From contig JACRNX010000031.1 of the NCBI GenBank assembly GCA_016214755.1, positions 18,020 to 82,019 on the forward strand: a stretch of 64,000 nucleotides of DNA. The letters are read 5' to 3'. A program made the translations under genes and the position numbers. The DNA is from Candidatus Falkowbacteria bacterium. Lineage in GTDB: Bacteria; Patescibacteriota; Patescibacteriia; UBA11705; JABHMO01. Below, one piece after another: positions 24,110 to 61,832 of the stretch. Position 1 is the first letter of the stretch, and every line of letters starts with the position of its first letter. The notes below the pieces were generated by a model, which saw only the letters and a list, made by a program, of their open reading frames with translations, was not told where the DNA came from and did not search any database.

Positions 24110-24160
24110 ATTAATGATTTTAAAATATTTTCCGAAGGATATAGTCCTGCCCAATTGTTT

Positions 24161-42059: not shown

Positions 42060-42801
42060 TCAAAGTGTGTCCCGTGATAAAAGAAGCGTCGTCAGAAAGT
42101 AAAAATAACACAGCATCCGCCACTTCCTCCGGTCTGCCCATTCTACCTAACGGAATTTTTGTTTTAGCTTCCAGTTTCAATTCTTCAATCCTTTTATCAT
42201 TGAAAATTGGTGTTTCAATCCAGCCGGGCGCCACCGCGTTAGAGCGAACGCCTTGTTTGCTGGCGATCCGAGCGAGTGAACGCGTCAGACTAATAAGTGC
42301 GGCTTTGCTGGCTGCGTAATCTGACGCCAAATCGCCGCCAGTTTGTCCGCCAACGGACGAAATATTAACAATCGCATCGCCGAATTGCATTTTTGGCAAG
42401 CATTCTTGCGCCAAAATGAAAGCGCTTTTTAAATTCACCGCCAAAGTGCGATCCCATTGTTCATCCGACAGCTCAAAAAAATTACCTTGCTTTAATATGC
42501 CGGCGTTGTTGATCAAATAAGCCACCTGTTGATGCCATTTATCTTCAATCGCGCGCAACAATTCCCGAACCTGTCCGCGCGAGGAAATGTCTTTTTGCAA
42601 AATCAAAAAATCAAATAGCCCTTGTTCTTTAAGCGACTGCTCCATGTCTTTAGCCGCGAACGTGTCTTGGTTAAAACAAACAACCACTTTGGCGTTGTTT
42701 TTTAAAAGCGCGATGGCGATGGCGCGGCCGATTCCCTTGATGCCGCCGGTAACCAAGGCCACTTTGGCATTGAAATTATATTGTTTCATAGTTTTTATCA
42801 A
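42031..42801 (-). CDS. short-chain dehydrogenase/reductase (FabG-like ketoreductase)
   Basis: KVALVTGGIKGIGRAIA glycine motif, NNAG, and the YAASKAAL catalytic motif. Confidence 0.85.
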   Translation of the reverse strand: MIKTMKQYNFNAKVALVTGGIKGIGRAIAIALLKNNAKVVVCFNQDTFAAKDMEQSLKEQGLFDFLILQKDISSRGQVRELLRAIEDKWHQQVAYLINNAGILKQGNFFELSDEQWDRTLAVNLKSAFILAQECLPKMQFGDAIVNISSVGGQTGGDLASDYAASKAALISLTRSLARIASKQGVRSNAVAPGWIETPIFNDKRIEELKLEAKTKIPLGRMGRPEEVADAVLFLLSDDASFITGHTLNVNGGMYFG

Positions 42802-43957
42802 TGTTCAAAATTTTATCTGTTTGTTCTCGGCTGGCACCGTACGCCCAGGCCAAACCGGCGATCTCATCGTTGTTTTTGACAATAGAGTTCTTTTGTTCAT
42901 TATTTTTAACGAATACGCCTTCTACCGCGGCGCTTTTTAATCCGAGTAGTTCAGCCGGATTAAAAATCGTTTTCCAAGCGCCGACTTTTTCGGCTGAATA
43001 AATTTTATATTCGGCATTTGACATGTCGGCACTCACCCATTTGAAAAACTGACGCAGCGGATTAAATTCTCCGAGAAACCCCATTGTACGAACAGTAAAA
43101 ATATCACCGTGAAACCGATTAGTAATTTCATAAACGTAACATTCATTGTCGCGAATGACACAATCGGCCTTGACCGGCCCGTGCGTAATGCCTATGGCGC
43201 GCGCGCCTTGTTCAAGCAGATTATACAACGTCTGCCAGACCGCCAGCGCTAATTGCGAGGGAAAATAACCGTGATGCGGCACAAAGTATGGGAGTTGTGT
43301 AAAAAATCTGTCTCCGATGCCAGCGGGGAAAAATTTTCCCTGCCAAAAAATTCCGTTTACATCATGATGCGTGCCGCGAATATATTGTTCAACGATAACT
43401 TTTCCGTCTCTGGCATAATTGCTAGCTTGATTGAATGCCGCCTCAATTTCAAACGACTCTTTTGCCAACCCGACGCCTTGACTGCCTGAAGCGGCCGTCG
43501 GCTTGATAATGATCGGCCAACCAAAATTGACAGCAAACTTTCTGGCCTCATCTGGTTTTTGGATCACGGCCGAACGCGGACAATTGATTTTATCTAACCA
43601 TCTCTGCTTCATGAGTGCCTTATCAAGACTGCCAAGCACAGCTTCAATTGGTGAATGAAGCAAACCGAGCGCGTCAGATACGATAGCCGCTGTCAACAAG
43701 CCAAAATCACTACCGCAATGGCAGAGGCGGATATTATATTTGACATTATTTTGCAATGCCCAAGTGGTTATTCCACGAACATTCGTCGCATCAAAACTTA
43801 ACGTCAAATCAGCTTTTGCTTTACCGGGCGCATCCGCTTTTTTATCGCTGACAATAACGTGAAAACCAAGTTGTTTGGCCCAGTCAATCGCGGGCATTCC
43901 CAATTCCCCGCCGCCTAAAAACAAAATTGATTTTATGTTTTGCATGCTGATAGCCAA
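42776..43957 (-). CDS. ATP-grasp domain ligase (second paralogue)
   Basis: ILFLGGGELGMPAIDWAKQLGFHVIVSD pre-ATP-grasp domain; 393 aa. Confidence 0.6.
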   Translation of the reverse strand: MAISMQNIKSILFLGGGELGMPAIDWAKQLGFHVIVSDKKADAPGKAKADLTLSFDATNVRGITTWALQNNVKYNIRLCHCGSDFGLLTAAIVSDALGLLHSPIEAVLGSLDKALMKQRWLDKINCPRSAVIQKPDEARKFAVNFGWPIIIKPTAASGSQGVGLAKESFEIEAAFNQASNYARDGKVIVEQYIRGTHHDVNGIFWQGKFFPAGIGDRFFTQLPYFVPHHGYFPSQLALAVWQTLYNLLEQGARAIGITHGPVKADCVIRDNECYVYEITNRFHGDIFTVRTMGFLGEFNPLRQFFKWVSADMSNAEYKIYSAEKVGAWKTIFNPAELLGLKSAAVEGVFVKNNEQKNSIVKNNDEIAGLAWAYGASREQTDKILNIDKNYETI

Positions 43958-45066
43958 TGTTTGTGTAATGGATTTATCTTCAATCTTTGTTTGGCGATGA
44001 ACTTCTCCGCCGCGCGCAGATTAGCCGTGACCGTGGCGCGTTGAAAAATTTTATTTTTGGGTTGAGCGTAAATCAAAGTTGTTGGTTTGAATTTCAACGC
44101 GGTTCGTCTCAGCCTACCTTCAACGGCAAAATCAACAGCCAACTGGAAAAAATTAAATTGCGTATTTGCTTTTGGCCAGAGAACATCGGCGATCAAATCG
44201 CCGCCTAAGTCGGAGTGCAATTCAATAATATATGGTCGGCCGTCTTGATTAACGCGAAACGATAAAATTAAAATGGCGGACAGGCACGGGAATAATTTTC
44301 CAAATCGCTCGACGATTTCTATTATATCTTGCTTGACCTTAGTCTTCTCAATTATTGAAGGCACACTGACGCCAACGCCCTTGATTAAATCGTCACGAGT
44401 TACTCCCACCAGCTCATCGCAAAAACCAATGATTCGCACGCGCCCTTTTCGTACGGTAAAAAAGCAAGAAACATCAAAGCCCTCAATGTATTCTTCTATC
44501 TCAACGAAATGATTGCCAGATGCCTTTGCCGCGGCGGTAAAAGCGGCGGCTAATTGAGTTTGATTGTAAACAATCTTAACTGACTTTTTACCGACCACTG
44601 GAAAGTCCGGTTTGACGATTAACGGAAACTTTAAGGTCGTCAGATGTTCGGGATATCGTTTTGTCCTTATGTTACCGGGCATGCGCAGGCCATGCCGGCG
44701 ACAAAATATTTTCAACTTCGATTTTTCCGTGGCGAGCGGGACTATTTCCGGCGACAGGCCAACCAATTTGTATTGTTTTGCGATCCGCGCGGCTGTTTTC
44801 AAAGCAAAACCAGAGGTGCGTGCGCTCAAACCGACAAGCTGATATTTTTTCCGTAATTTTTCCAATTCTTTAATTATGCCAACGGCGTCGCGAGTGCTTT
44901 TGACGATTTTCTCAGAGGCAAAAGCGAATCCTTGCGCTTCAGGATTGCGATCAATGGCGATAACTTTATATTTCTTCGCGGCTGTTTTGACAAAAGGCAA
45001 CTGTCCGCGCCCGGCGCCAAGACAAATTATTGTTTTAGGCAATTTTTTAGTATCCGACATTCTCAT
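43933..45066 (-). CDS. ATP-grasp domain ligase (third paralogue)
   Basis: IICLGAGRGQLPFVKTAAKKYKVIAIDRN pre-ATP-grasp domain; 377 aa. Confidence 0.55.
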   Translation of the reverse strand: MRMSDTKKLPKTIICLGAGRGQLPFVKTAAKKYKVIAIDRNPEAQGFAFASEKIVKSTRDAVGIIKELEKLRKKYQLVGLSARTSGFALKTAARIAKQYKLVGLSPEIVPLATEKSKLKIFCRRHGLRMPGNIRTKRYPEHLTTLKFPLIVKPDFPVVGKKSVKIVYNQTQLAAAFTAAAKASGNHFVEIEEYIEGFDVSCFFTVRKGRVRIIGFCDELVGVTRDDLIKGVGVSVPSIIEKTKVKQDIIEIVERFGKLFPCLSAILILSFRVNQDGRPYIIELHSDLGGDLIADVLWPKANTQFNFFQLAVDFAVEGRLRRTALKFKPTTLIYAQPKNKIFQRATVTANLRAAEKFIAKQRLKINPLHKHWLSACKT

Positions 45067-46833: not shown

Positions 46834-47787
46834 TTATTTGCCTTTAAAATTAAAGCCAATCGTAATTTTTTCTGCTTGTTCTGGCGTTAGAGCAATTCTC
46901 TCGTTGTATAATCTTGGCGTTTTGGCGAGGCCACTCAACAGCGCCTTTAACAAAACGCTTCGCCGCCGCGAAACGCAATCAACCGCAACGCACCAAGAAT
47001 ATTTTATCAACCAGATTAAGGTTTTTATGTTAAGCGGATAATATTTTAAAACGAACATTAAGCTGCTTCTGGCGGAAGTAAAATTTGCGATTGGATTGCC
47101 GGTTCTATAATTAAACGAGCTGTCAACCGCAAAGCCCCATTTGTTGTCATTTTTTTCAGTGTCGTCCGAGGCAAACGCATGAAAGACATAAAGGTCGCTA
47201 AAATTTTTTGCGATCATGCCCGCTTTCATTACTTTTGCCGAAATTCCCAATTCATACGGCGAAGTGTGCCCCCATTCCTCCCAATAGCCGTATTGTTCTA
47301 CGATTTCCTGGCGATATCCGCCGCCGCAACCAGACCAATAGTAATTTTCTGATTCGCTTTTTGATTCGGCCAAGTGAGCCTCGTCGTAATAATTGGCAAT
47401 AAACGCTTTCTGGTTATAGACATTGAATGCAATCAAGCCAAGCCGCGGATCGCATTCAAATTCCTTTACCATTCGGGTAACGCACTCCCTGCCTGGGAAA
47501 GAATCATCATCCAGCGATACCAAATATTTTCCAGTTGCTTCTCGGCAGGCCATGTTTCTCGCCGCGACTCCGCCGATATTTTCCATCGTTCTTAGACATT
47601 TCACTTGGGAAAATTTTTCTTTAATCGCTTCACTGCTTCCGTCCGAAGAACAATTATCAACGACAATTACTTCAATTGGCCGATAAGATTGTTCGTATAT
47701 TTTTCCCAGAGTTTTTAGTATTTCATCCTTTCGATTGTAGGTCGAGAGAAAGAAGCTGACTAGGGGATTATTCATCGTTGCCACCAT
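46834..47787 (-). CDS. glycosyltransferase family 2
   Basis: LVSFFLSTYNRKDEI ... VVDNCSSDGS ... SLDDDS motifs. Confidence 0.85.
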   Translation of the reverse strand: MVATMNNPLVSFFLSTYNRKDEILKTLGKIYEQSYRPIEVIVVDNCSSDGSSEAIKEKFSQVKCLRTMENIGGVAARNMACREATGKYLVSLDDDSFPGRECVTRMVKEFECDPRLGLIAFNVYNQKAFIANYYDEAHLAESKSESENYYWSGCGGGYRQEIVEQYGYWEEWGHTSPYELGISAKVMKAGMIAKNFSDLYVFHAFASDDTEKNDNKWGFAVDSSFNYRTGNPIANFTSARSSLMFVLKYYPLNIKTLIWLIKYSWCVAVDCVSRRRSVLLKALLSGLAKTPRLYNERIALTPEQAEKITIGFNFKGK

Positions 47788-48367
47788 AAAAATATTTATT
47801 TATCTCTGTTTGTCGCAGATATTTGGCGCGGAACAGCTCCTTAACCATATGCACGATAATCAAATGAGCGTCCTCAATTCGCTCCATGGATTGCGTGTTC
47901 ACCACAATCGCCAAATCAGCTAGTTGCGAAAGTTTTCCGCCCATCTGTCCTTTATAATTGCCAGTTAATCCGATTGTAAAAACTCCTTTGCTTTTGGCGT
48001 ATTCTATGCCGCGTAAAACATTTTCCGAGTTACCGCTGCCGCTAAATCCGATTACTAAATCACTTTCATTCAAGAAAATTTTGAGTTGTCCCTCAAAAAT
48101 ATGTCCATAAGAATCATCGTTGGCGAATGCGGTCACGGCGGCGATATTATCAGTCAAGCAAAGCGTTTTTACTTCCAGGGACTTTGACCAATCGCCAGCG
48201 GCATGCACAGGCGTCGCGGCCGAACCGCCGTTGCCGATGACATAAACGGTTTTCTGCTTTTGCTTAATCTCAAACAATTTCGTGGCGATCGTGTCAATGT
48301 CATTATGACGCAAATTCGTGATCGCTGAAATTAAATCAAGTTGATATTCTTTAGTGTGCGCCTCCAT
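47768..48367 (-). CDS. gmhA: D-sedoheptulose-7-phosphate isomerase (SIS domain)
   Basis: VYVIGNGGSAATPVHAAGDW and IGFSGSGNSENVLRGIEYAKSKGVFTIGLTG match the GmhA SIS-domain signatures. Confidence 0.8.
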   Translation of the reverse strand: MEAHTKEYQLDLISAITNLRHNDIDTIATKLFEIKQKQKTVYVIGNGGSAATPVHAAGDWSKSLEVKTLCLTDNIAAVTAFANDDSYGHIFEGQLKIFLNESDLVIGFSGSGNSENVLRGIEYAKSKGVFTIGLTGNYKGQMGGKLSQLADLAIVVNTQSMERIEDAHLIIVHMVKELFRAKYLRQTEINKYFYGGNDE

Positions 48368-48381
48368 ATGATTTTAGTTTA

Positions 48382-51024
48382 CTAATTTAAATTCCCGTGA
48401 AATTCATTTAAGAAATTTGCTACCATGAGCGGTATCCTTTTACCGTTAAAGAAGGAATATTCCAAACTGTCTTGTTCGCTCTGCGTTGTTCTTGGATGTT
48501 TATAATATCTCATTGCCCACCAAAGGTCATTCAAGCGCGGGAGGTCATCTTCCGTGTACGTCCAAATTTTCTTTTTTAATTCTGGAATTATAAACGGCCA
48601 TTCTACTGCCATAGAAAAAATTTTATGGAGATAGTTTATTTGTCTTGCGTGAGGCACATTAAGAACAGTTCGATCGTGAAAACTAGGCGCCATTGAATCA
48701 AGAAAATCATCAGGGAGCTCTCCCGCCTCCCTCGCGATAGTATTTAAATGCGTTCCAGGATAAGGTGTGCAAATGCCAACCCAGGCAAAATGTGGCTGAA
48801 TTTCCGCATTTAATTCAATAGAATCAAAATCATTTTCCAGCTTTGTTGTAGGAATGCCAACCATGCTATGGGTAGTCAAATTAATTCCGTATTTCATTGC
48901 CGAGCGGCATCCCTGAATAATTCTATCATTTGATATTATCCGGCATAAGACATTTTTTCTAACATTTTCATTGCCGCTTTCCAAACCAACAAAAATCGCT
49001 TCGCAGCCATGCTTTGCCATTTGCTCAAAACTTTCATCATCGCGCGTTTCGAGTCGGCATGAACAGATGAAAGGTTTCGTGATTTTTCTTTTATATTCAT
49101 CAAGAAATAAATAGAGGGTTTCCTTGTTAGGAAAAAATAAATCATCGTGAAAATTAAATTTAGGCGGATCATATTTATCATTAAGATACTGAAGCTCTTC
49201 AATTGTATTTTTAATGCTTACATTCCATTGCTTGCCCTTGCCGGCATAAATTTCATTGTATTTCGAATTAAAACAATATGAACAATGATACAGACAGCCG
49301 CGCGATGCCATAATATTCATCGGCCCGGTTTTATCTTCGTGACGAATGAATAATTCGCGATCAGCCCAAGGAATTTGTTCAGATGGAATTTTATTGCCGA
49401 CAGGATTTTTTACTATTCTCCCGTTGTTTTTTATATGAAGGTTGGGAATGTCATTAAAATCCATTCCCTTTTGAACTCGCTTAGCAAGCTCGGCCATGGC
49501 AATTTCACCTTCGCCAATACAAATAATATCAATTCCGTCCTGTTCAAGTTCTTCGGGGAAAAAGGTTGGATGAGAGCCGCCAACAACGCAAAGGAAATTA
49601 AATTTCTCTTTTAATTTTTTAATAAGACGCCGACACTGAATATGTTCGTGAGCCGTGATATTAAATCCAACGATGTCAGGTTTAAAAGCCATCATTATTT
49701 TTTCTATGTCGTCTCCTAGATTAATCAACGCTCCTTCAACAATATGCCCGTCTTTCTTCAATACAGTTGATAAAATTTGCAATCCTAAGGGAATTTCCTT
49801 TGAAGCGCTTGCAAGCAATATTTTTACAGGGCCTTTTTCCTGCATGCTAAATTGCACTGTCGCTGGTACCTTTTTTTGTTTTGATTGTTTTAATGAGTCA
49901 ACCACATAATGCACTTGAGTTTCATCTAAATATAGGTGTAATGGCAATGACAAAATTTTTTCGTAGGCGTTTTCTGCAATTGGAAAATCGCCCATCCTGT
50001 AGCCCAACGTTTGATACGGCGCAAAATAATGCAGCGGCGTGTAATGAACGCTCGTTTGCACTCCGAGTTCGTTTAATTTATGATAGACGGCATCGCGCGC
50101 TAAACCAAAATCTTTTTCGATCTTTATCACGTAGAAATGCCAAGATGATTTGGCGTAATCTTTTTCATTCGGAATAGTGATGCCCTCAATGTTTTTTAAT
50201 AACTCAGAATATAGTCCGGCCAATTTTTTCCTAATCGCATTGAATCTTTCAACTTTTTTTAATTGAGTGATGCCGACGGCCGCTTGTCCTTCGCTCATTC
50301 GGCAATTATAGCCGACTTGAACGCAATCCCTGAACCATGGTTTCTCCAAAACTGCTGAACCGGCGTAATTGCTCAAATATTTGATTCCATGATTTTGAAA
50401 AAGTTTAATTTTCTCCATCGCCTCGACGGTTGAAGCAGTGACTATGCCGCCTTCGCCCAGCGTTGAAATGTTTTTTTGAGTGTAAAAACTATAGGCCGCG
50501 AAATGCTCAAACGAACCGATTCGTCGAGATTTATGCTCGGCGCCGATTGCGTGGGCCGCGTCGCTGATTACAGGCAAATTGTAATGAGCGGCTAAGTCCA
50601 TTATTTTATCCATATTAGCTGGATGACCTGAATAATGAACTGGCAAAATCGCTTTTGTTTTAGCGGTTATTTTTTCTTCTATCTTATCAGCGTCAATATT
50701 TAAAGTGTCAGGTTCGACATCAACAAAAATTGGTATCGCCTTTTCCAGCATAATGACATTGGCGGTTGCCACCCAGGTGATCGGCGTGGTGATAATTTCG
50801 TCTCCGGGTTGAATGTCAATTCCTTTCAAAGCAAGGTGGAGCGCGGTCGTACAACTGGAAGTTGAAAGCGCGTATTTAGCGCCTGCAAACGCGCTAAACT
50901 CGCGTTCGAATTGCTTAATCACGTCCCATTTATTGTATTCGATCGGTTTTTCCAATAGATCAATGATCGCTTTCTTATCATCATCTTCGTAAATGTTACC
51001 TCGCTGAGCAAAATAAACTTTCAT
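48382..51024 (-). CDS. fusion protein: DegT/DnrJ/EryC1-family aminotransferase domain + cobalamin-binding radical SAM domain
   Basis: N-terminal 390 aa are a fold-type I sugar aminotransferase (ITTPITWVATAN..., SFYTQKNISTLGEGG). Next is a B12-binding-like domain (VKILLASASKEIPLGLQILST...DIVGFNITAHE). Then IMASRGCLYHCSYCFNS (CxxxCxxC). 880 aa. Confidence 0.75.
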   Translation of the reverse strand: MKVYFAQRGNIYEDDDKKAIIDLLEKPIEYNKWDVIKQFEREFSAFAGAKYALSTSSCTTALHLALKGIDIQPGDEIITTPITWVATANVIMLEKAIPIFVDVEPDTLNIDADKIEEKITAKTKAILPVHYSGHPANMDKIMDLAAHYNLPVISDAAHAIGAEHKSRRIGSFEHFAAYSFYTQKNISTLGEGGIVTASTVEAMEKIKLFQNHGIKYLSNYAGSAVLEKPWFRDCVQVGYNCRMSEGQAAVGITQLKKVERFNAIRKKLAGLYSELLKNIEGITIPNEKDYAKSSWHFYVIKIEKDFGLARDAVYHKLNELGVQTSVHYTPLHYFAPYQTLGYRMGDFPIAENAYEKILSLPLHLYLDETQVHYVVDSLKQSKQKKVPATVQFSMQEKGPVKILLASASKEIPLGLQILSTVLKKDGHIVEGALINLGDDIEKIMMAFKPDIVGFNITAHEHIQCRRLIKKLKEKFNFLCVVGGSHPTFFPEELEQDGIDIICIGEGEIAMAELAKRVQKGMDFNDIPNLHIKNNGRIVKNPVGNKIPSEQIPWADRELFIRHEDKTGPMNIMASRGCLYHCSYCFNSKYNEIYAGKGKQWNVSIKNTIEELQYLNDKYDPPKFNFHDDLFFPNKETLYLFLDEYKRKITKPFICSCRLETRDDESFEQMAKHGCEAIFVGLESGNENVRKNVLCRIISNDRIIQGCRSAMKYGINLTTHSMVGIPTTKLENDFDSIELNAEIQPHFAWVGICTPYPGTHLNTIAREAGELPDDFLDSMAPSFHDRTVLNVPHARQINYLHKIFSMAVEWPFIIPELKKKIWTYTEDDLPRLNDLWWAMRYYKHPRTTQSEQDSLEYSFFNGKRIPLMVANFLNEFHGNLN

Positions 51025-53087
51025 AAATTAATTTTATTTAAATTTCGCACTTGATAAAATAAATTTTCTGGTGCGATTTGTTCCGACATCTTTCGGAGCG
51101 ATAGATTTTTCGAGTGGGATTTATATTGGTCGAATAAACTTTTAATTAAACTTTCCTGCGTGTCTGATAAATAGAATTCATATTGAAAGTTTCCGCAAGG
51201 CAAATCGTCTTTATGGCCAGATAAGCGCCAGGTTAAAATATCAAATTCAAACATTTTGATTTTTGAACGAATAAAATCATCGTTTGTTAAGTTAATTTGT
51301 AAGTTATTTGAAAAATCCAAGACATTTTGGCATTGTTTTAAAAATAAATCCGATTGTTTTGTCGCGGCTTCGCTAAAAATTTTCTTAGCGACTTGATAAA
51401 GGAAATCATTAAAAGCGGGTTGTTTTTCCAATAAAATCTTGTAAGTGTACAAATAATTTAATTTGCCGTAATCGCCGCTTCGGAGCCGCGCGAAATTTTC
51501 CTCACGCCGCCAATAATCAAAAAGTTCTTCTTTGGTATCAAACAATTCCAAATTATGATCGCGCGAAAAATCTTTATATAATTCGTTTATTTCATGCTCT
51601 GGCGATGTAATTATCTGACTGGCTCTTAGAATTACTTCTAGCGGATGAACATTTATTTTTTTAAATAAATTCAGGAAATCATAATACCATTTTTTTGACC
51701 ACATAAATTGAATCAAAAAATGGATGAAACGAAATGAACGTAAATCAGCCATTGACATGGTGCTTGTTTCCATAACATTCTCTTCGGCGTCGAACACTTT
51801 TCTGCCCTCATAAATGCCAAAGCTCATATCAAACAATCTCCAAGCCGTGCGGCGAACAAATCTATTTCTTGACTCCTGACTGTCTAAAACCGTTCCTGGC
51901 AGTAAATGCAAATTGTAATTGAAAATTTCCGTTTCCAAATCCATCATCCTTTTGTTTGTCTCAATATGGCTCTCTTTAGTTTCCAAAGGCAGTCCCAAAA
52001 TCAGTTCCGTGGACATACCCAGTTCAGCTTTCTTAAGTTCTTGATGCAGTTTAAGTAGCTCCGACCAAGAAATATTTTTCCTTTTGACCACATCTAGCGT
52101 CGGCTGATGCAGTGTTTGCATTGAGGCGCAATATTTTGTCAATTTGCCGAATTTTTTAATAATTTTCAAAAGCAATTCTGGATTTGATTTATTCCAACAT
52201 ATGTCCACATATCCTGGATAGCTGTATTTTTGACTGCATTCATAAATCTTGTCCGCGATATCAGCGTCTCTTGGGAAAAGACCAAAATTTGCGTCTGCTA
52301 ATTCCAATATTTTGGTTTTTGTGCAACGTTGGCCAATGTATTCAATCTCCAAAATAACGCGTTCCTTACTGAAAGTCGTCACCCTTTTTGATTTTTTCCC
52401 CCAAGCGCAAAAGGCGCATTCATAAGGACAGGAACGATTTGTTTCAATAATCGGAATGTACGGCTGATTGAAAAATTCATCCAACAATCCGGAAAGATAC
52501 GGTGAAGGAATGGAATCAAGATTAACGAATCCGTCAATCAATCCGCCAATCTGAACCGCATTTTCATTAAAGATGTTGTTGACAAGACATCCTGCAATCG
52601 TCTGCTGTCTAAATTTGTTCAAATCTAAATCACATTTTAAGAATTTATCAATAATATTCTTAAATCCAATTTCGCCGGAATCAACCACAAAAGCGTCGCA
52701 ATCTTGATGTTTAGAGAAAAATTTTTTTGCTCCTTCTTCGTTGGCGTTCAGGGAGCTAAATTCTGGACCGCCGCCGACAGTGAGCGTGTCCGGAGAATAT
52801 TGTTTGGTTATTTCAAAAATTCTTTTATTTAATTGATTGACCCAGCAGTAATAAGAGAGTCCGACAACTGTCGGTTTTTCGGCTTTGATGGCGCTGATAA
52901 TTTCAGCCGGACTTTTGAAAAGTTTAATTTCTGTTTTCGGATAAAATTTAAACAAATACGCCGCCACGCTCGCCACGCCCAGCGGGAAAGCCCAGGTGCC
53001 GACTTTTTCCCAATCATGTTCCAAACTGCCTAAAAATATTTTCATCTTTAATATTATTTTATTTGTCAGTCCACCGCAAAAAATCAT
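51021..53087 (-). CDS. cobalamin-binding radical SAM enzyme with about 400-aa C-terminal extension
   Basis: N-terminal B12-binding-like domain (KIFLGSLEHDW...TVVGLSYYCWVNQ), ETNRSCPYECAFCAWG rSAM motif. 688 aa. Confidence 0.7.
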   Translation of the reverse strand: MIFCGGLTNKIILKMKIFLGSLEHDWEKVGTWAFPLGVASVAAYLFKFYPKTEIKLFKSPAEIISAIKAEKPTVVGLSYYCWVNQLNKRIFEITKQYSPDTLTVGGGPEFSSLNANEEGAKKFFSKHQDCDAFVVDSGEIGFKNIIDKFLKCDLDLNKFRQQTIAGCLVNNIFNENAVQIGGLIDGFVNLDSIPSPYLSGLLDEFFNQPYIPIIETNRSCPYECAFCAWGKKSKRVTTFSKERVILEIEYIGQRCTKTKILELADANFGLFPRDADIADKIYECSQKYSYPGYVDICWNKSNPELLLKIIKKFGKLTKYCASMQTLHQPTLDVVKRKNISWSELLKLHQELKKAELGMSTELILGLPLETKESHIETNKRMMDLETEIFNYNLHLLPGTVLDSQESRNRFVRRTAWRLFDMSFGIYEGRKVFDAEENVMETSTMSMADLRSFRFIHFLIQFMWSKKWYYDFLNLFKKINVHPLEVILRASQIITSPEHEINELYKDFSRDHNLELFDTKEELFDYWRREENFARLRSGDYGKLNYLYTYKILLEKQPAFNDFLYQVAKKIFSEAATKQSDLFLKQCQNVLDFSNNLQINLTNDDFIRSKIKMFEFDILTWRLSGHKDDLPCGNFQYEFYLSDTQESLIKSLFDQYKSHSKNLSLRKMSEQIAPENLFYQVRNLNKINL

Positions 53088-54099
53088 CTAAACGCTTATC
53101 GCTTTGCAGCCGCTTTAATTGCAACAAGCGGTGGCAATGATAATCGCGAAACATTTGTTCGCTAAAATTTACTTCTCGAAAAAAATTAACCAGTTCTTCT
53201 CCACCTCGTTCCAAATTCCAAGCCGGTTTATAATAATCTTTTAACTGGTTTAAAATTTTTTTGAAACTGACGCGGTATGTTCGTGAATCGCGGCCGTGCT
53301 CACCGGTAAAAACCAATTCGCTCCCTTTAACAGCCTTTTGAGCAGCTTCAGCCAAATCGCGGACAGTGTAATTGCCATTTTCAATTCCCACATTAAATGA
53401 TTGTCCGGATATTAGCTCTCGCGGCGCCGTTAATCCGGCGATAAACGCGTTGCTCACATCTTGGACGTGAACAACCGGCCGCCATGGCGTGCCGTCGCTT
53501 TTGATTTCAATCTTATGAGTGGTATAGGCGCAAGCAACTAAATTATTAAACACAATGTCGCAACGGAGCCGCGGACTGGCGCCAAAAACCGTTGATGGTC
53601 TCATGCAGACGACAGTAAAATTTTCTGAACAGATTCCTTTTATTGCGCACTCTGCCTGCCATTTTGTTTTCGCGTACGCCGTCAAAGGATTTTTTTCACT
53701 ATTATCCTCATCCAGTTCCTCGCCGCTGTTTGCTATCCCGTACATACTTTGAGAAGACGAATAAACAAATCTTTTAATCCCATTTGCTTTTGCCAATTCG
53801 GCCAGTTTGACTGTTGCTCGAAAATTTATTTCTTCGGTTAATGCGGGATTTAATTCTCCGAGAGGATCGTTAGACAGAGCGGCGAGATGAATAATCGCGT
53901 CAATGCCCCGCAAATCTTCGGCGCAAACATCGCGAATATCTTTGATAATTTGTTTTACCGGATAATCAATTTTTTTCAATCCGCAATCCTGATAAAAATC
54001 CGAGTCATAGCCGATTACATTAAAACCGCCTTCTAAAAGTTTTTTAGACAAGATCGAACCAATATAACCAAGATTGCCAGTGAGCAAGATGTTTTTCAT
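53059..54099 (-). CDS. NAD-dependent nucleotide-sugar epimerase/dehydratase (candidate GDP-heptose dehydratase/epimerase)
   Basis: MKNILLTGNLGYIGSIL Rossmann motif and YAKTKWQAE (YxxxK). It sits immediately next to the heptose activation genes. Confidence 0.7.
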   Translation of the reverse strand: MKNILLTGNLGYIGSILSKKLLEGGFNVIGYDSDFYQDCGLKKIDYPVKQIIKDIRDVCAEDLRGIDAIIHLAALSNDPLGELNPALTEEINFRATVKLAELAKANGIKRFVYSSSQSMYGIANSGEELDEDNSEKNPLTAYAKTKWQAECAIKGICSENFTVVCMRPSTVFGASPRLRCDIVFNNLVACAYTTHKIEIKSDGTPWRPVVHVQDVSNAFIAGLTAPRELISGQSFNVGIENGNYTVRDLAEAAQKAVKGSELVFTGEHGRDSRTYRVSFKKILNQLKDYYKPAWNLERGGEELVNFFREVNFSEQMFRDYHCHRLLQLKRLQSDKRLDDFLRWTDK

Positions 54100-54109
54100 A
54101 AAATTAATT

Positions 54110-55303
54110 TTATTTGATTATCTCGACGGCTATTTGCCATAAATCCTTATCTGACGACACCAAAAAGGTTTTTACCTCGGCCGCTTCACCTGCCTGCCGG
54201 TCGGTTTCATCGTCACCGATATAAATCGCCTCGCTTAAATTAAGATGATGCTCTCGCGCTGCTTGGAAAAACATTCCTGGTTTTGGTTTCCGGCATTCGC
54301 AGTCATCGTCGCTTGAGTGGGGACAATAATAAATGGCGTTTACCTCGATATTGTTTTTCATCAGTTCCTCGTTCATGCGGCGATGAATGTCGTTCAAATC
54401 CTCTATGGTCATCAAGCCACGGCTGATACCCCGCTGATTTGTGACAATGTAAAAAACATATCCGTTTGATTTGAGCAGTTTTAACGCCGGGATAACCGAC
54501 GGCAAAAACTCAAACTCTTCCCATTTTTTGACATAATCATGGCTGGGCATTTTTTTATTAATTACGCCATCGCGGTCGAGAAAAATTACTTTTTTATGAG
54601 CTAAAAAGCTTTCCGCTCTCTTCAGATATTCAATGTTTGTTATCGGATAATAGGGATGGTCCGTTCGATAGCCGATTAATTGATTCTGTTCTATCAATTT
54701 TGGGAAGATAACAGTTTGAAACGAAAAGTTATCAGCCGGCATCATCTCCAGCACTTTCTTGTTTAGGATAAAAAAACCGATTTCCGTTCCGTTTAATCTT
54801 TCGTCTTGACGCGTTTGGTCATAAAAAATAACGCGTCCATCAGCGCCAACCGCAATATTGTTTTCAAATCCGTACTCTCCCGCGCCGTCTTTGTTATTAT
54901 AAACAGTTGTCATCGCCAACACGTTTTTTGAACGATAAAAATTCAGCATCTTCGGCAGATTCATCGGCCAATAATTATCGCCGTACATCACGAGAAACTC
55001 GTCGTGAAGCATGTCAGCAGCATTGTGTATCCGAGCGCCGGTTTCATCTTCAACCGTTCCAATGGAGTATTTTATTAGCAAGCCGAATTTGCTGCCGTCG
55101 CCAAAATATTCAGTGATTTTTTCCGCCAAATATCCCGACAAAATTACGACTTCTTCAATGCCATTTTTTTTAAGCAACTCAATTAAATACTCCAAAAAAG
55201 GTCTTCCGTTTATTGGAATCATCGGCTTCGGAATTGTCTCAGTTAGCGGCCTTAATCTTGCGCCTAATCCGCCAGCTAAAATCACTGCCTGTTTAACGCT
55301 CAT
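54110..55303 (-). CDS. bifunctional D-glycero-D-manno-heptose-1-phosphate nucleotidyltransferase (HddC-like) / D,D-heptose 1,7-bisphosphate phosphatase (GmhB-like HAD)
   Basis: N-terminal AVILAGGLGARLRPLTETIPKPM (sugar-phosphate nucleotidyltransferase). C-terminal VIFLDRDGVINKK ... YYCPHSSDDDCECRKPKPGM ... YIGDDETD are GmhB HAD motifs. The start is placed at the internal ATG 55303 (MSVKQAVILAGG), which leaves a 7-nt gap to the upstream stop; the track ORF begins at 55363. Confidence 0.75.
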   Translation of the reverse strand: MSVKQAVILAGGLGARLRPLTETIPKPMIPINGRPFLEYLIELLKKNGIEEVVILSGYLAEKITEYFGDGSKFGLLIKYSIGTVEDETGARIHNAADMLHDEFLVMYGDNYWPMNLPKMLNFYRSKNVLAMTTVYNNKDGAGEYGFENNIAVGADGRVIFYDQTRQDERLNGTEIGFFILNKKVLEMMPADNFSFQTVIFPKLIEQNQLIGYRTDHPYYPITNIEYLKRAESFLAHKKVIFLDRDGVINKKMPSHDYVKKWEEFEFLPSVIPALKLLKSNGYVFYIVTNQRGISRGLMTIEDLNDIHRRMNEELMKNNIEVNAIYYCPHSSDDDCECRKPKPGMFFQAAREHHLNLSEAIYIGDDETDRQAGEAAEVKTFLVSSDKDLWQIAVEIIK

Positions 55304-55310
55304 ACATGAA

Positions 55311-56309
55311 TTAAAAATGTCTGGAATTATAAATAATTTCACTGCCGTGAGACGAGAGTTCAACTTGCAATTCCTTTAAATCCGCTAATGCTTTCCTCAC
55401 ATTTTCATGATTTTCTGGCTTGCAATAGAAAAGTAAAAAACCGCCGCCGCCTGAACCAAGCAATTTCCCGCCTATCGCGCCCGCCTTGATTGCTCTTTCG
55501 TAATAATCATTAATTGCGTCATTGCTTATTTTACTCGCCAATTCTCTTTTTGCCAGCCAGCCCTGATGCAGAGTATTGCCGATATTATCTAAATTATTTT
55601 GCTTTAATTCTGAACGCAATTGTTCGGCATATCCAACCATTCTGATTAATTTATTTCTAGTTTCTTCTTTAGTTAAAGTATTGGCTTTCTGCTCGCTTAA
55701 AACTGCTTTTGAGTCAGAGTTCATGTTTGTATTGAAAAGAAGCAAATTTTGATTTAAATAGCGCCTGCTTTTATCATCAAGATGAATTGGTTCGGCGATT
55801 ACATTGTCGTCGGCATTGAAACGAAAATAATTCAGTCCGCCAAAAGCGGCCGCGTATTGGTCTTGTTTACCAATCGGCTGGTCCAGCAACTCAATCTCTA
55901 TTTTGCAAGCTTGTTCAGCCAGCATCTCCGGCGAAACTTGAACACCTTTGTACGCGTAAAGAGCGTTTAACACGCCAACGGCAATACTGCTGGAAGAACC
56001 CAACCCTGTTCCCCAATCGTACGGCTGAACATCAGCCATATAAACAATATCTATTCCCTTATTAATGCCGCCAACAAGTTTGAGCGCTTCTCTGATTATA
56101 TTGTGCTGAATTTTTTCTATATCGTAAACCAATTCTGTTTGCGAATAGCTGACGCGGATGTAATCATCAAATTTTTTATTGACAATCACATAAACATATT
56201 TATTAATCGTCGTGCTGACCACGGCGCCGTATCCTGTTTGATAAAAGGCCTTAAGGTCAGAGCCGCCGCCGCTAAAACTCATTCTAAGGGGTGTGCGCGA
56301 AATAATCAT
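55311..56309 (-). CDS. GHMP-family sugar kinase (D-glycero-D-manno-heptose 7-phosphate kinase HddA-like)
   Basis: MIISRTPLRMSFSGGGSDL N-terminus, PxGxGLGSSSS ATP-binding motif (DWGTGLGSSSSIAV), and the GHMP C-terminal GAIGGKLLGSGGGGFLLFY. Confidence 0.8.
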   Translation of the reverse strand: MIISRTPLRMSFSGGGSDLKAFYQTGYGAVVSTTINKYVYVIVNKKFDDYIRVSYSQTELVYDIEKIQHNIIREALKLVGGINKGIDIVYMADVQPYDWGTGLGSSSSIAVGVLNALYAYKGVQVSPEMLAEQACKIEIELLDQPIGKQDQYAAAFGGLNYFRFNADDNVIAEPIHLDDKSRRYLNQNLLLFNTNMNSDSKAVLSEQKANTLTKEETRNKLIRMVGYAEQLRSELKQNNLDNIGNTLHQGWLAKRELASKISNDAINDYYERAIKAGAIGGKLLGSGGGGFLLFYCKPENHENVRKALADLKELQVELSSHGSEIIYNSRHF

Positions 56310-56322
56310 ATTTAATAAATTT

Positions 56323-57075
56323 TCAATTTAAATTTGGCCGATTGTTGACGCAGATAGCAATAAAAGAATAAGCGTCGCGCAGTTCTGTCGTAATTGGGTA
56401 ATTATCGGGCGATAACTCGTTTTGACCTGGAATGTAAAAAATTTTTCTCGTTAAACTGCAAATTGTTTTTGGCAAGTAATTCCTAATTTTAAATGGGTCA
56501 AAATGCCAAAGAAACCGCAGCCGCGCCGAACCGTCATTTTTTAACAAGCCTAGGACATTCAAGACCTTAAATTGCCTGGATAATTCTTCAACCAGCGTGA
56601 TTTTGTCATATTCGCGATAATGAACGGGATTTGTGTTTTTCGTTTTGGCAATGTTCGGCGTAATTACAATCAATGCGCCATTTTCTTTAAGGTGTTTTTT
56701 TATTGTTATTAAATATCTCTGGGGGTCAACCATTTGCTGAATCACGTCCACGGAAATTGCCGCCTCAAAATTTTTATCCGCCAAATCAAAATCATGCAAA
56801 TCCGTCAAAACGAACGAAGTATTGGCGATATTCAAACTATGCGCGATTTCAATCGCTTTTGCGTTTCCGTCTAATCCAACCGCTGACTGAAAATAGGGCT
56901 CTAACAATTTTATTGACCAGCCCGCGCCGCAGCCAGCATCTAATATTTTTTTTCCAAAGACAAACGGTATCAAAAAATTATGCTTTGCTTTATGGATATT
57001 AATTACAACGCTGTCGGTTGTTGCTTTGCCAACGCGCGTTTGTTCGTCTGATTTGGGGTCAATGATTTTCTTCAT
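56323..57075 (-). CDS. class I SAM-dependent methyltransferase
   Basis: ILDAGCGAGWSI motif I; 250 aa. Confidence 0.75.
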   Translation of the reverse strand: MKKIIDPKSDEQTRVGKATTDSVVINIHKAKHNFLIPFVFGKKILDAGCGAGWSIKLLEPYFQSAVGLDGNAKAIEIAHSLNIANTSFVLTDLHDFDLADKNFEAAISVDVIQQMVDPQRYLITIKKHLKENGALIVITPNIAKTKNTNPVHYREYDKITLVEELSRQFKVLNVLGLLKNDGSARLRFLWHFDPFKIRNYLPKTICSLTRKIFYIPGQNELSPDNYPITTELRDAYSFIAICVNNRPNLN

Positions 57076-57151: not shown

Positions 57152-57652
57152 ATGAACCATGCTCATACTCTTTCATTATCCCATCGGGATAGAACGGCCA
57201 TGGAGCGCCGGCGGCTTAAAGCCGCGAAGCTCTTCGCCAAAGGTCGTAGACAGGCTGATGTGGCCAGAACCCTCGGAGTTAGCCGTGAGGCGGTTCGCCA
57301 GTGGCATGATATCTGGAAAAAGAAGGGGAAGATTGCTTTGCAAAGCGCCGGCAAACCAGGTCCCAAGTCTCAACTAACGCCCGAAAAATTAAGATTAGTG
57401 AAGAAAGCATTGTTAAGAGGTCCGACGGCCCATGGATTTGCCACTCAGCTGTGGACACTTGAACGGATCGCGGCCATGATCAGGAAAGTGGCCGACGTTT
57501 CTCACGGTACGACGCGGGTGTGGCAGGTGTTACAATCTCTTAATTGGTCGTGCCAAAGGCCTGAAACACGCGCCCATGAACGAAATGAGGCGGCCATCCG
57601 CCGCTGGCAAAACACCGCCTGGCCGCGCATTAAAAAAAAGCAATGCGAATAG
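57152..57652 (+). CDS. IS630-family transposase OrfA (HTH DNA-binding part)
   Basis: RRRLKAAKLFAKGRRQADVARTLGVSREAVRQW helix-turn-helix. Ends just after the A8G slippery run at 57632..57640. Confidence 0.8.
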   Translation: MNHAHTLSLSHRDRTAMERRRLKAAKLFAKGRRQADVARTLGVSREAVRQWHDIWKKKGKIALQSAGKPGPKSQLTPEKLRLVKKALLRGPTAHGFATQLWTLERIAAMIRKVADVSHGTTRVWQVLQSLNWSCQRPETRAHERNEAAIRRWQNTAWPRIKKKQCE

Positions 57653-58206
57653 GCGCAAAATTGGTCTTCTGGGACGAATCCGGCATTTCGCAAAAAGCGA
57701 GCGTCCGGCGAACATGGTCTCCCAAAGGGCGCACGCCGGTTATTGTTTCGACCGGCTCATGGCGGTCGCGGTCGGTTATCGGCATTATTACCTGCACACC
57801 GCGCGGCAGAAAGCCGAAACTGTTTCTAAGGATTTTCAAACACGCCATCAAATATCCGGATATCATTCGATGCCTCAAAGAGCTGCACCGTCATGTCAAA
57901 GAACGAATAATTTTAATGTGGGACGGTTTGCCCGGTCATCGGGCACGCGCTACTCGTTTGTTTCTGATAACGCAGAGACACTGGCTCGAAACGCATCGTT
58001 TCCCCGCCTATGCGCCGGAGTTAAATCCGCCGGAATATCTGTTTTCCGCACTAAAATCCCGCAATCTTACCGGCCTACATGTGGCCACCATCGATGAAAT
58101 TGATGCCCACATTAAAATCGGCAAGCGTCGTCTCCAAAGGCGACCGGATATTCTGAATGGTTTTTTAAAAGAGTCGAGATTGTTTGATAAAGAGTTGTCA
58201 ATCTAA
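57643..58206 (+). CDS. IS630-family transposase OrfB (DDE catalytic part; probably expressed as OrfAB via -1 frameshift)
   Basis: VFWDESGIS ... LMWDGLPGHRA ... PAYAPELNPPEYLFSALK, the DDE/D motifs of the IS630/Tc1 superfamily. This frame is open from 57634, inside the A-run. Confidence 0.8.
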   Translation: MRIGAKLVFWDESGISQKASVRRTWSPKGRTPVIVSTGSWRSRSVIGIITCTPRGRKPKLFLRIFKHAIKYPDIIRCLKELHRHVKERIILMWDGLPGHRARATRLFLITQRHWLETHRFPAYAPELNPPEYLFSALKSRNLTGLHVATIDEIDAHIKIGKRRLQRRPDILNGFLKESRLFDKELSI

Positions 58207-59241
58207 TTGTGAAAAGTCAATAGAGCCGGGCAAATTCTGGTTGACAAGTTCTAATATGCGTTTTTCAATCAGCTCATCAATGGCCTTAACTTCGCCCGGC
58301 CAGCCCTGGCTGTAATCATGAAATATGATCGGCGCGCCATTATTTAAGTGCGGTTGAATATGCTGAAAAATTTCCATGATTTCATCGTAAGTGTGAAATA
58401 AATCAATAAAGGCAAAATCATATATTTCCTTGTTATCCCGCAGAAAATCTTGATATAACATTTTTTGAGGAATTATTACGGCCTTATATTCAGAATTAAA
58501 AGAAATATTCTTAATGAATTCGTCGTAAAAGCTCTCTCCGTATGTTTGCGCAAATTTTTCTTCTATGGCGATGCCTTCCCAACCAAAGGTATCAACTGAA
58601 GTGACTGAACCGCCGTTGTTTTTTAGTACGCCTTTGGCTAAAAAATGTGTGCTTTTGCCACAGGCCGGACCAAGCTCAAGAATTTTTTTGCCTTTTGTCG
58701 CCATAACAGCTTTTTCCAAATATTTTCCCTCTTCTAAAATAAATTGCCCCCGCCGGCTGGAAAAATAATCATACAACGCCAGCTCGCCCAAATCGTTGAC
58801 AGTCGCCATACCGTTTTTGCGGATCGGTTTGAATGCGTTGTAATAATAATTGTCAAAATACCAATCAAATTCAATCGGCGAGTACGACTCGCAATATAAA
58901 CCAATCTCGATAAAATCCTGTGGCTCGCTTAACCCGGAAGCGATCAATGCCTGCGATATTTCTTCCCAATGTCTGGAGGCGATGACAATCAGACATTGAT
59001 TTGACCTGTTGACGCTTTCTTTACGAAATTCTTCAAAGCGAACAATTTTGATTTTGTCAAGATGACAATTTTGGGCATTCTGGTCAATAAATCCTTGAAT
59101 TTGAACATTTAATTCACTTTGCAGAGCTGACTGCAATCGTCCACCCATAAACCCGGCGCCGTAGATCCAAATCGGTCTTTTATTCAAATCAAAAAATGAA
59201 TTTAAAATTTTTAATACACTATCACCGTTTTCGTTTGTCAT
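58198..59241 (-). CDS. SAM-dependent methyltransferase (class I, O-methyltransferase-like C-terminal domain)
   Basis: KKILELGPACGKSTHFLAKG motif I and acidic motif II region (IDLFHTYDEI). The last six codons plus the stop (DFSQLD*) are encoded inside the IS right inverted repeat. Confidence 0.6.
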   Translation of the reverse strand: MTNENGDSVLKILNSFFDLNKRPIWIYGAGFMGGRLQSALQSELNVQIQGFIDQNAQNCHLDKIKIVRFEEFRKESVNRSNQCLIVIASRHWEEISQALIASGLSEPQDFIEIGLYCESYSPIEFDWYFDNYYYNAFKPIRKNGMATVNDLGELALYDYFSSRRGQFILEEGKYLEKAVMATKGKKILELGPACGKSTHFLAKGVLKNNGGSVTSVDTFGWEGIAIEEKFAQTYGESFYDEFIKNISFNSEYKAVIIPQKMLYQDFLRDNKEIYDFAFIDLFHTYDEIMEIFQHIQPHLNNGAPIIFHDYSQGWPGEVKAIDELIEKRILELVNQNLPGSIDFSQLD

Positions 59242-59249
59242 AATTTACT

Positions 59250-61828: not shown

Positions 61829-61832
61829 AAAA

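Follow-up and report, generated by a model that had tools for sequence, protein, structure and literature searches.

Radical S-adenosylmethionine (SAM) enzymes that depend on cobalamin have been described mostly in the pathways to antibiotics, cofactors and peptides made by the ribosome and modified after translation (RiPPs). Two of them, GenK and GenD1 of gentamicin biosynthesis, C-methylate unactivated sugar carbons, and oxidation and transamination at the same carbon then follow. Two heptose pathways are also close to the system described here. In septacidin biosynthesis (PMC9978623), the heptose is oxidized at C4 by the oxidase SepI and then transaminated by the aminotransferase SepG, which gives a 4-amino-4-deoxy-heptose. 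The account of the Campylobacter jejuni GDP-heptose pathways (PMC10680097) describes no aminotransferase or radical SAM step; the words "aminotransferase" and "radical" occur in it 0 times. Here we describe two genes, A and B, from Candidatus Falkowbacteria, an uncultured groundwater bacterium (assembly GCA_016214755.1, contig JACRNX010000031.1). The 64,000-nucleotide (nt) stretch of this contig that was analysed is called the window, and all coordinates are positions in it. Both genes lie in a glycan locus, a very large surface-sugar gene cluster. Gene A joins a sugar aminotransferase to a B12-binding radical SAM enzyme, and gene B is a separate B12-binding radical SAM protein. The best overall explanation, to which we give about an even chance, is that both enzymes would tailor nucleotide-activated sugars for a cell-surface glycan. 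Cobalamin binding and methylase activity go beyond what sequence can establish and are treated below as predicted functions.

The two genes and the domains of gene A, with lengths in amino acids (aa), are as follows.

48382..51024, minus strand: gene A, DegT / B12-binding / radical SAM fusion, 880 aa (open reading frame (ORF), Pfam, exact match P0001)
49891..50928, minus strand: DegT-type pyridoxal phosphate (PLP) aminotransferase domain of gene A, aa 33-378 (PF01041)
49843..49890, minus strand: junction or linker of gene A, aa 379-394, KQSKQKKVPATVQFSM, with a run of seven A (A7) at 49871..49877 and Met394
49486..49815, minus strand: B12-binding (Rossmann-like) domain of gene A, aa 404-513, with GGSHPT and GEGE motifs
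48844..49305, minus strand: radical SAM core of gene A, aa 574-727, with cluster cysteines C577, C581 and C584 at 49273..49296
51021..53045 (longest ORF to 53087), minus strand: gene B, TokK/CysS-like B12-binding radical SAM, 674 aa (Pfam, NCBIfam, PDB, model)

Exact protein matches exist for both (gene A, MBI5077314.1; gene B, MBI5077315.1), from Candidatus Falkowbacteria on an 87-kb contig. Domain profile searches show gene A to be one reading frame, with a DegT PLP sugar aminotransferase at the N-terminus and a two-domain B12-binding/radical SAM enzyme at the C-terminus. They agree with an earlier note, made from the letters alone, that read 48382..51024 as a complete DegT aminotransferase with a B12-binding domain and a radical SAM core. 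The DegT_DnrJ_EryC1 match (PF01041, aa 33–378) has an E value of 7.8e-112, scores 374.5 bits vs 19.8, and spans positions 23–359 of the 360 in the profile. The PLP lysine is K184 (codon 50473..50475), which stands in YSFYTQK(184) within SFYTQK-NISTLGEGG; we take the SFYTQK-type motif to mark this lysine. It aligns with the lysine of the DegT ortholog in locus L012, and its retention identifies the aminotransferase type, with a Schiff-base lysine, and not the ColD/E1 dehydratase type. The best PDB matches of the domain are sugar aminotransferases, and the score for PseC (TIGR03588) is 329.2 bits, under the cut-off of 423.5. The B12-binding domain (PF02310, aa 404–513) is found with an E value of 7.5e-18 and 65 bits against a cut-off of 32.1. 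It contains the residues G98, G99, T103, G120, E121 and G122 that are invariant across the family in alignment A2, and in sequence the region matches OxsB and TokK over their B12 domains. The radical SAM domain (PF04055, aa 574–727, E 5.3e-17) carries the cluster motif GCLYHCSYC at residues 576–584, with CxxxCxxC intact and the cysteines invariant in alignment A2.

Gene B likewise has both domains. The B12-binding match (PF02310, aa 29–116, E 6.7e-8) is borderline at 32.8 bits against the cut-off of 32.1, and the radical SAM match covers residues 215–377 (E 5.5e-8). The motif RSCPYECAFC lies at residues 218–227, and its cysteines C220, C224 and C227, in the numbering of the 688-aa frame, are invariant in alignment A1. 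With these two Pfam domains and an intact CxxxCxxC, the earlier identification of gene B as a B12-binding radical SAM protein stands. Translation probably starts at Met15 (53045; 674 aa), as supported by the NCBI call and the homologs, and with this start there would be no overlap with the gene for a short-chain dehydrogenase/reductase (SDR) that precedes it. Among 639 homologs listed, the best 120 are 41–68% identical over 92–98% of the length and measure 658–716 aa. A 42-sequence alignment shows conservation up to the C-terminus, with the cluster cysteines invariant. The tail of 400 residues of unknown function that had been ascribed to gene B is in fact about 265 residues long; every homolog retains it, and its counterpart in TokK/CysS is their C-terminal domain. 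The PDB sequence matches are TokK (1e-35) and CysS (7.5e-34). The predicted model (pLDDT, predicted local distance difference test, 91.2) gave Foldseek template-modelling (TM) scores of 0.76–0.79 to TokK (7kdx/7kdy) and 0.72–0.78 to 9n1b-d over 705–720 columns, and it superposes on cobalamin-bound TokK and on CysS along the whole chain, including the C-terminal domain. By sequence and predicted fold, gene B is of a sister family to the characterised TokK/CysS methylases and not a member of their group.

The joining of the two halves of gene A calls for scrutiny at the level of single nucleotides. The DegT domain extends to about residue 380 and the B12 domain opens with a strand at about residue 402, with a linker of about 15 residues. 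The sequence across the junction reads ...DSLKQSKQKKVPATVQFSM(394)QEKGPVKILL..., in which Met394 resembles a former start of a radical SAM gene. With one A added at 49871..49877, a TAG stop would fall 1 nt ahead of the Met394 ATG, as at an ordinary gene boundary. Because of the A7 run and this neat boundary, an indel artefact had to be considered: a 1-nt error or a population variant at the run would have joined adjacent DegT and radical SAM genes, and the fusion would not be biologically real. The DegT would then end ...KQKKGTSDSAI-TAG and the radical SAM protein would begin at Met394. The typical spacing of this boundary fits such an origin, as do the occurrence of the fusion in no other genome and the free-standing state of the orthologous DegT. 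Against it, the linker is in frame and free of stops over 15 codons with intact domains on either side, as expected for a real fusion, and a second radical SAM fusion in the locus, with another partner, has no Met at its junction. An independent assembler, working on the raw reads, also gave an identical sequence. We consider the artefact improbable. The earlier note had named an assembly artefact, with its junction near 49850, as the way in which the fusion could fail. An 18.6-kb Logan contig from run SRR12113407 equals the window over 8643 nt at 100% identity, junction included; the junction is therefore not an assembler artefact, and an assembly chimera at gene A is rejected.

The junction also holds an in-phase A_AAA_AAG heptamer, a dnaX-type slippery motif, exactly between the domains (49870..49877, minus strand; codons 383–385 of gene A). 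The −1 frame entered from it runs for 7 codons and ends in a TAG 1 nt ahead of the Met394 ATG. The 20,626 codons of the window hold 9 such in-phase heptamers, and the chance of one in a 15-codon linker is about 0.7%. No stimulatory RNA structure was found downstream of the heptamer. Since the downstream RNA is without unusual structure and its predicted folding is no stronger than that of shuffled sequence (z −0.5), programmed −1 frameshifting is not proposed.

The fusion was sought elsewhere with the full-length protein by phmmer among 1.84 billion cluster representatives, and by two word-indexed searches of 5.8 billion clusters. Among the 1.84 billion representatives no second protein contains both halves; the sole such match is gene A itself (2063 bits). 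The next matches are a 387-aa stand-alone DegT (58% identity, 521 bits), DegT-DegT tandems and stand-alone radical SAM proteins of about 440–560 aa, mostly 440–510 aa, with an identity of at most 40%. The word-indexed searches, made with the full-length query and with the radical SAM half alone, found no second DegT-B12-radical SAM protein either. Two groups of candidates were set aside. The high-scoring matches of 780 aa (P0002–P0009) are DegT-DegT tandems, and the long matches to the radical SAM half are intein-containing radical SAM proteins or a fusion with a glycosyltransferase of family GT9. Every relative of the radical SAM half either stands alone or has a different fusion partner.

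How the fusion arose can be read from a conserved cassette among its neighbours, with the order methyltransferase (MTase)-HddA-HddC/GmhB-SDR-B-DegT. The genes on the two sides of A and B are listed here.

47768..48367, minus strand: SIS-domain sedoheptulose-7-P isomerase-like gene, GmhA-like (Pfam SIS_2 4e-14; TIGR00441 gmhA)
53059..54099, minus strand: extended SDR (Pfam Epimerase 2e-40; PDB 6vo6)
54110..55363, minus strand: nucleoside triphosphate (NTP)-transferase + HAD phosphatase fusion, HddC-GmhB-like (Pfam, NCBIfam); translation probably begins some 70 nt further in than the TTG of the listed ORF
55311..56309, minus strand: GHMP kinase, HddA-like heptose-7-phosphate kinase (Pfam GHMP_kinases_N and _C; NF049969)
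56323..57075, minus strand: class I SAM methyltransferase, first gene of the conserved cassette (Pfam; synteny L008/L012)

Locus L012 has the order CMP-synthetase-like, MTase, MTase, HddA, HddC/GmhB, SDR, B-homolog (55%), DegT, SDR. Its DegT is a free-standing protein of 386 aa that is 61% identical over 380 aa to the N-terminal half of gene A and ends 6 residues past the position of residue 380. Locus L008 shows the same cassette up to gene B (B 68%, SDR 72%, HddA 68%), and the contig stops 36 nt after B. Across L008 and L012 the cassette SDR is 64–72% identical, and the cassette MTase is 50–56% identical and in the same position. As far as sequence searches reach, the DegT-B12-radical SAM architecture is unique so far, a singleton and a one-genome event. 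The earlier note had seen in the three radical SAM genes, the fusion included, a strong candidate for a new biosynthetic system; because the orthologous DegT stands alone in the syntenic cassette, we read the fusion as a lineage-specific event and not as a conserved system, and the other DegT-radical SAM fusions that the note had wished to see sought were not found in these searches besides gene A. The fusion was probably a recent joining of the conserved cassette DegT to a neighbouring extra radical SAM gene.

The genes around A and B are as the earlier note described them, with gmhA on one side and the SDR, HddC-GmhB and HddA genes on the other. By Pfam, the four precursor activities for GDP-heptose (SIS, GHMP kinase, HAD phosphatase and NTP-transferase domains) are present together. 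None of them reaches its NCBIfam equivalog cut-off (gmhA 93 bits vs 209, HddA 153.9 vs 600, HddC 102.9 vs 300, GmhB 171.9 vs 178). The assignment to heptose therefore rests on the joint presence of the four activities. HddA and GmhB are the top NCBIfam families for their stretches, and HddC is out-scored by other sugar-1-phosphate nucleotidyltransferase models. The best solved relative of the SDR at 53059..54099 is 6vo6/6vo8 (6vo6 E 7.9e-32), 30 bits above the next, with the YxxxK motif aligned. These entries are probably C. jejuni Cj1427, the GDP-heptose C4-dehydrogenase, which would fit a keto-then-amino route. The function of Cj1427 is described in PMC10680097.

Relatives of the radical SAM half of gene A point the same way in part. 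They are free-standing genes in polysaccharide loci, with flippases, GT4 and GT2 glycosyltransferases, deacetylases and SDRs; the contig of the best homolog (L011) is too short to be informative. Two of the closest stand-alone relatives sit inside ADP-heptose clusters. One (L002, 38% identity) is immediately preceded by GmhA, a PfkB heptose kinase and HldC/GmhB and has a GT9 gene close by, and the other (L033, 35%) is found with GT2, HldE and GmhB. A further homolog, P0466 (855 aa), is a radical SAM protein of the same type with a C-terminal GT9 heptosyltransferase fusion, and it may serve as an independent Rosetta-stone link between this clade and heptose. Among 53 loci of at least 6 kb, the neighbours include GmhA-like genes in 6, DegT-like genes in 10 and SDR genes in 12; 6/53 is a strong enrichment for a gene that is roughly single-copy.

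For gene B the genomic company is a different one. The B-family scan covered GTDB species genomes; the genome of the window and its relatives in the Candidate Phyla Radiation (CPR) are not among them. The family was found in Paramagnetospirillum and other Rhodospirillales, Pelagibacteraceae, Desulfovibrio and relatives, and Magnetococcales. In a tblastn census of 23 loci, counting genes within 10 kb, the neighbours are SDR (12/23), DegT (10/23), CMP-nonulosonic acid (NulO)-synthetase-like proteins (12/23), NeuB (9/23) and NeuC (8/23), and HddA in 3/23 only (L008, L012 and L021). The genes for SDR, DegT and B are directly contiguous in L009, L012, L014, L015, L024 and the window. The window itself has a nonulosonic-acid-type gene set (58198..63972) upstream of the cassette, and L008 and L012 have the same genes in the same order.

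62965..63972, minus strand: PseB-like SDR (Pfam)
61833..63002, minus strand: DegT of the nonulosonic-acid-type gene set (Pfam)
60938..61828, minus strand: NeuB (Pfam)
59250..61016, minus strand: CMP-synthetase-like protein, 588 aa (Pfam)
58198..59241, minus strand: MTase_24 (Pfam)

This company raises the possibility, which we hold to be somewhat doubtful, that gene B, and possibly the radical SAM part of gene A, act on the NulO branch, while the heptose genes serve a separate sugar of the same glycan. The substrate would then be a CMP-NulO, a 6-deoxy-hexose precursor or an N-acyl group. The census favours this, since the synthetase-like, NeuB and NeuC genes outnumber HddA; in L013 and L020 gene B comes directly after the CMP-synthetase gene, and in the window, L008 and L012 the NulO genes lie 5–11 kb upstream of it. 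Fom3, a related methylase, uses a CMP-linked substrate, which also counts for a NulO branch. In the three CPR-type cassettes and in L021, however, gene B is directly flanked by heptose genes and the Cj1427-like SDR, and the order SDR-B-DegT, kept in L024 and the window, points to the stage of the nucleoside diphosphate (NDP) sugar. The earlier note had the heptose, or a 6-deoxy/4-keto-heptose, both aminated and radical-modified. The embedding of both genes in the GDP-heptose set and the relatives of gene A near heptose genes support that picture, and the mostly NulO-linked B family does not; modification of a heptose by gene B is thus one reading among others, as its company consists of nonulosonic-acid genes far more often.

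One such locus, L013, is from a cultured organism (Paramagnetospirillum kuznetsovii LBB-42, NZ_PGTO01000001.1, 1900..14300) and has gene B at the end of a complete legionaminic-acid-type operon. The order is NusG-like, SDR, DegT, NeuC, PglD-like acetyltransferase, NeuB, a 433-aa protein, CMP-synthetase, B, a 446-aa protein and an Antibiotic_NAT-like acetyltransferase. The 433-aa protein is conserved at 59–69% in four other B-family loci and at 29% in a fifth; neither it nor the 446-aa protein has a homolog in the window.

Returning to tailoring of a nucleotide-activated sugar, the following pathway can be proposed. The Cj1427-like SDR would oxidize C4, and the DegT domain of gene A would turn the 4-keto sugar into a 4-amino sugar. 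The fused radical SAM domain would carry out a radical step on the same nucleotide-heptose, of which cobalamin-dependent C-methylation at an unactivated carbon seems the likeliest form, and through the fusion the two active sites would exchange the intermediate by direct hand-over. Gene B would most likely C-methylate an NDP-4-keto or 4-amino sugar intermediate from the SDR/DegT pair; the conserved order SDR-B-DegT argues for this stage, and full-length homology to TokK/CysS makes methylation the best-supported predicted chemistry for it. The trio of SDR, DegT and B recurs in the cassette and in legionaminic-acid-type operons of Proteobacteria, and the heptose cassette may represent a variant of the front end in a nonulosonic-acid-like pathway. 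We tentatively suggest, as a possibility and not as an expectation, that the cassette of SDR, B-family radical SAM and DegT(-radical SAM) makes undescribed surface sugars, either amino-heptoses that are C-methylated (and so chain-extended or branched) or nonulosonic-type acids with at least 10 carbons. The fusion would then be a module that channels two steps, and in the B family one would have the first radical SAM enzymes with cobalamin dependence that act on nucleotide-activated cell-surface sugars.

A number of points weigh against the proposed tailoring reactions. The radical SAM half of gene A was modelled (pLDDT 89) as a B12-Rossmann domain with a radical SAM barrel, and its fold matches MgmA, TsrM, AprD4, OxsB, CysS and TokK at about equal distance (TM 0.60–0.68). 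In the model it thus appears equidistant from methylases (MgmA, TsrM, TokK and CysS) and from the non-methylating AprD4 dehydratase and OxsB. The best PDB sequence match of the radical SAM core is AprD4 (E 1.1e-9), which we take to bind no cobalamin; a B12-like domain need not bind it. No NCBIfam cut-off is met by the C-terminal half of gene A, for which the top family is HpnJ (TIGR03471, 88.8 bits vs 577.6), with lower scores for ladderane radical SAM (79), MJ_1487 (78.5), HpnR (74.6) and PhpK (72.9). Gene B misses its nearest NCBIfam cut-off as well (NF033712, the KedN5 family of methylcobalamin C-methyltransferases, 175.7 bits vs 700). The heptose association of the gene A clade concerns a minority of loci (the GmhA-like 6/53), and the B family is tied mainly to NulO genes, with heptose genes much rarer. 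The orthologous DegT functions in the L012 cassette without a visible A-type radical SAM protein, and the fused radical SAM step is for this reason an add-on. A single-nucleotide indel at the A7 run would cleanly divide the ORF of gene A into two genes. Finally, CPR bacteria generally have, to our knowledge, no cobalamin synthesis.

The same likenesses raise the question of whether the radical SAM part of gene A, instead of being a methylase, catalyses a radical lyase or rearrangement reaction in the manner of AprD4, DesII or HpnJ/OxsB. Pairs of this kind have precedents in DesI/DesII and AprD3/AprD4, in which a radical SAM enzyme is paired with an aminotransferase or an SDR. The enzyme would make or consume the carbonyl or amine that is handled by the fused partner. 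It might dehydrate the C6-C7 glycol (1,2-diol) of the heptose to a keto or aldehyde function, which the DegT would then aminate, or it might deaminate the 4-amino sugar made by the DegT, with net deoxygenation as in DesI/DesII. By the same logic, the SDR fusion listed below would be an AprD4+AprD3-like dehydratase-reductase. AprD4 is the best PDB match of the core, with a fold TM of 0.64–0.66; both fused radical SAM parts have their highest NCBIfam score with HpnJ; both fusion partners in the locus, DegT and SDR, process carbonyls; and SDR and radical SAM genes occur as separate, adjacent pairs elsewhere (L067 and L073). The likeness to AprD4, however, covers the radical SAM core alone. The family NF033070 is missed by far (44.2 bits vs 500, over residues 185–386 of the half), and the N-terminal domain scores 65 bits as B12-binding and matches the cobalamin domains of OxsB and TokK. 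A DesII-like assignment was rejected, as no DesII-type NCBIfam family was matched even at E ≤ 1, and the orthologous DegT obtains its keto substrate without an A-type radical SAM protein. A lyase or rearrangement role is rather unlikely in our view, and for gene A we place cobalamin-dependent C-methylation slightly ahead of it.

The second fusion of the locus is listed here with its closest connections.

21686..24154, minus strand: SDR epimerase/dehydratase + B12-binding + radical SAM fusion, MBI5077292.1 (Pfam)

Its ORF has 822 aa (807 aa in the NCBI call), without a Met at the junction. The radical SAM half is the closest paralog of that of gene A (31% identity, E 5e-52), and gene B, of a different subfamily, matches gene A weakly, over the B12 domain only (22%, E 0.004); the three radical SAM genes are not the uniform paralogous class-B set that the earlier note had assumed. 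Relatives of the radical SAM half of the SDR fusion (36–40% identity) recur next to GmhA and/or DegT in L061, L069, L097 and L103. Several B12-radical SAM genes may also stand together. In L002 (GCA_043956695.1, JBINOA010003470.1, 8001..17356) four B12-binding radical SAM genes share 9 kb immediately downstream of ADP-heptose genes and GT9, with an AsnB-like amidotransferase and a flippase. L079 and L098, among others, have 3–5 B12-radical SAM paralogs in a row. In two homologs of the radical SAM half of gene A, P0405 (906 aa) and P0492 (621 aa), an intein separates the B12 domain from the radical SAM core; one intein has a LAGLIDADG homing endonuclease, and the other is a mini-intein.

The rest of the locus contains further genes of interest. 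Nearly all genes from about 64 kb to about 1.4 kb of the window are on the minus strand and make up one very large glycan locus, and the G+C content is 38–44% over the window, without a compositional break at genes A and B. An insertion sequence (IS)630-like element (57152..58206, plus strand) consists of two overlapping ORFs, a helix-turn-helix protein (57152..57652) and a DDE_3 transposase (57643..58206). It breaks up the glycan operon, with MTase_24 (58198..59241) on one side and the cassette MTase (56323..57075) on the other; the corresponding place in L008 and L012 is free of an insertion. The 588-aa CMP-NulO-synthetase-like protein has a C-terminal extension of about 350 aa without a Pfam match, which is conserved in L008 (48%) and L012 (25%). 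A 1-deoxy-D-xylulose-5-phosphate synthase (40236..42059, minus strand) scores 528 bits for TIGR00204, above the equivalog cut-off of 466. It lies in the glycan locus between ATP-grasp ligases (38968..40254 and 42776..45066) and a FabG-like SDR, where it could serve a thiamine pyrophosphate-dependent two-carbon branching step instead of isoprenoid metabolism. Two radical SAM/SPASM genes (30915..31943 and 32638..33606, minus strand) are interleaved with class I methyltransferases (29998..30903 and 31963..32634); SPASM enzymes are unusual in polysaccharide clusters. A fusion of a CTP_transf_3 cytidylyltransferase with a class I/II aminotransferase (641 aa) is encoded at 24161..26086 on the minus strand.

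The locus can now be set beside the characterised systems. TokK and CysS have the same build as gene B, a B12 Rossmann domain, a radical SAM barrel and a helical C-terminal domain, with CxxxCxxC kept. Identity to gene B in the structural alignment is, however, 18–21%; the B family is found in glycan and NulO loci and not in antibiotic clusters, and the substrates of TokK and CysS are a carrier-linked carbapenem or benzoate and not nucleotide sugars. GenK and GenD1 are likened to gene A by description, not by sequence; they act on pseudo-oligosaccharides and not on NDP-sugars, and have no aminotransferase fusion. In DesI/DesII, a DegT-family aminotransferase works with a radical SAM deaminase, and in AprD4/AprD3 a radical SAM diol dehydratase works with an SDR, each pair around the same sugar carbons. 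The two fusions of the window bring together exactly these types of partner, but the known pairs are separate proteins, whereas gene A is fused and keeps a well-scoring B12-binding domain. The legionaminic and pseudaminic acid pathways (LegB/C/H/G/I/F) compare with the operons of B-family genes, which hold SDR, DegT, NeuC, a PglD-like acetyltransferase, NeuB and CMP-synthetase; we know of no radical SAM step in the characterised ones. Septacidin is a precedent for a keto-then-amino route at C4, there on a nucleoside-linked L-glycero heptose of a Streptomyces antibiotic and without a radical SAM enzyme. The C. jejuni GDP-heptose pathway (GmhA/HddA/GmhB/HddC; PMC10680097) has the same four precursor activities as the window, where HddC and GmhB are fused; its GDP-heptose pathways continue with epimerases, reductases and a PLP 3-dehydratase.

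In the literature searched, no paper ties B12-radical SAM enzymes to nucleotide-sugar, heptose, NulO or CPR glycan pathways. What is known, then, is the superfamily of each domain. The DegT-B12-radical SAM architecture is new, as are the placement of class-B-type radical SAM enzymes in nucleotide-sugar, heptose and NulO pathways and a TokK-like family, large, conserved and uncharacterised, whose genes go with operons for sialic-acid-like sugars. Gene A is less singular than the earlier note held, the fusion being a one-genome event and B12-radical SAM orphans numerous. A bacterium of the CPR with a reduced genome gives more than 55 kb to this glycan locus, including three B12-type enzymes. Environmental bacteria, among them SAR11, magnetospirilla, sulfate reducers and members of the CPR, have the B family in abundance, embedded in sialic-acid-like pathways, which would imply undescribed C-alkylated surface sugars in very common organisms. 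The DegT and SDR fusions together may be read as a Rosetta stone for the enzymes that pass substrates to orphan radical SAM proteins, and the substrate they suggest is a GDP-4-keto- or GDP-4-amino-heptose.

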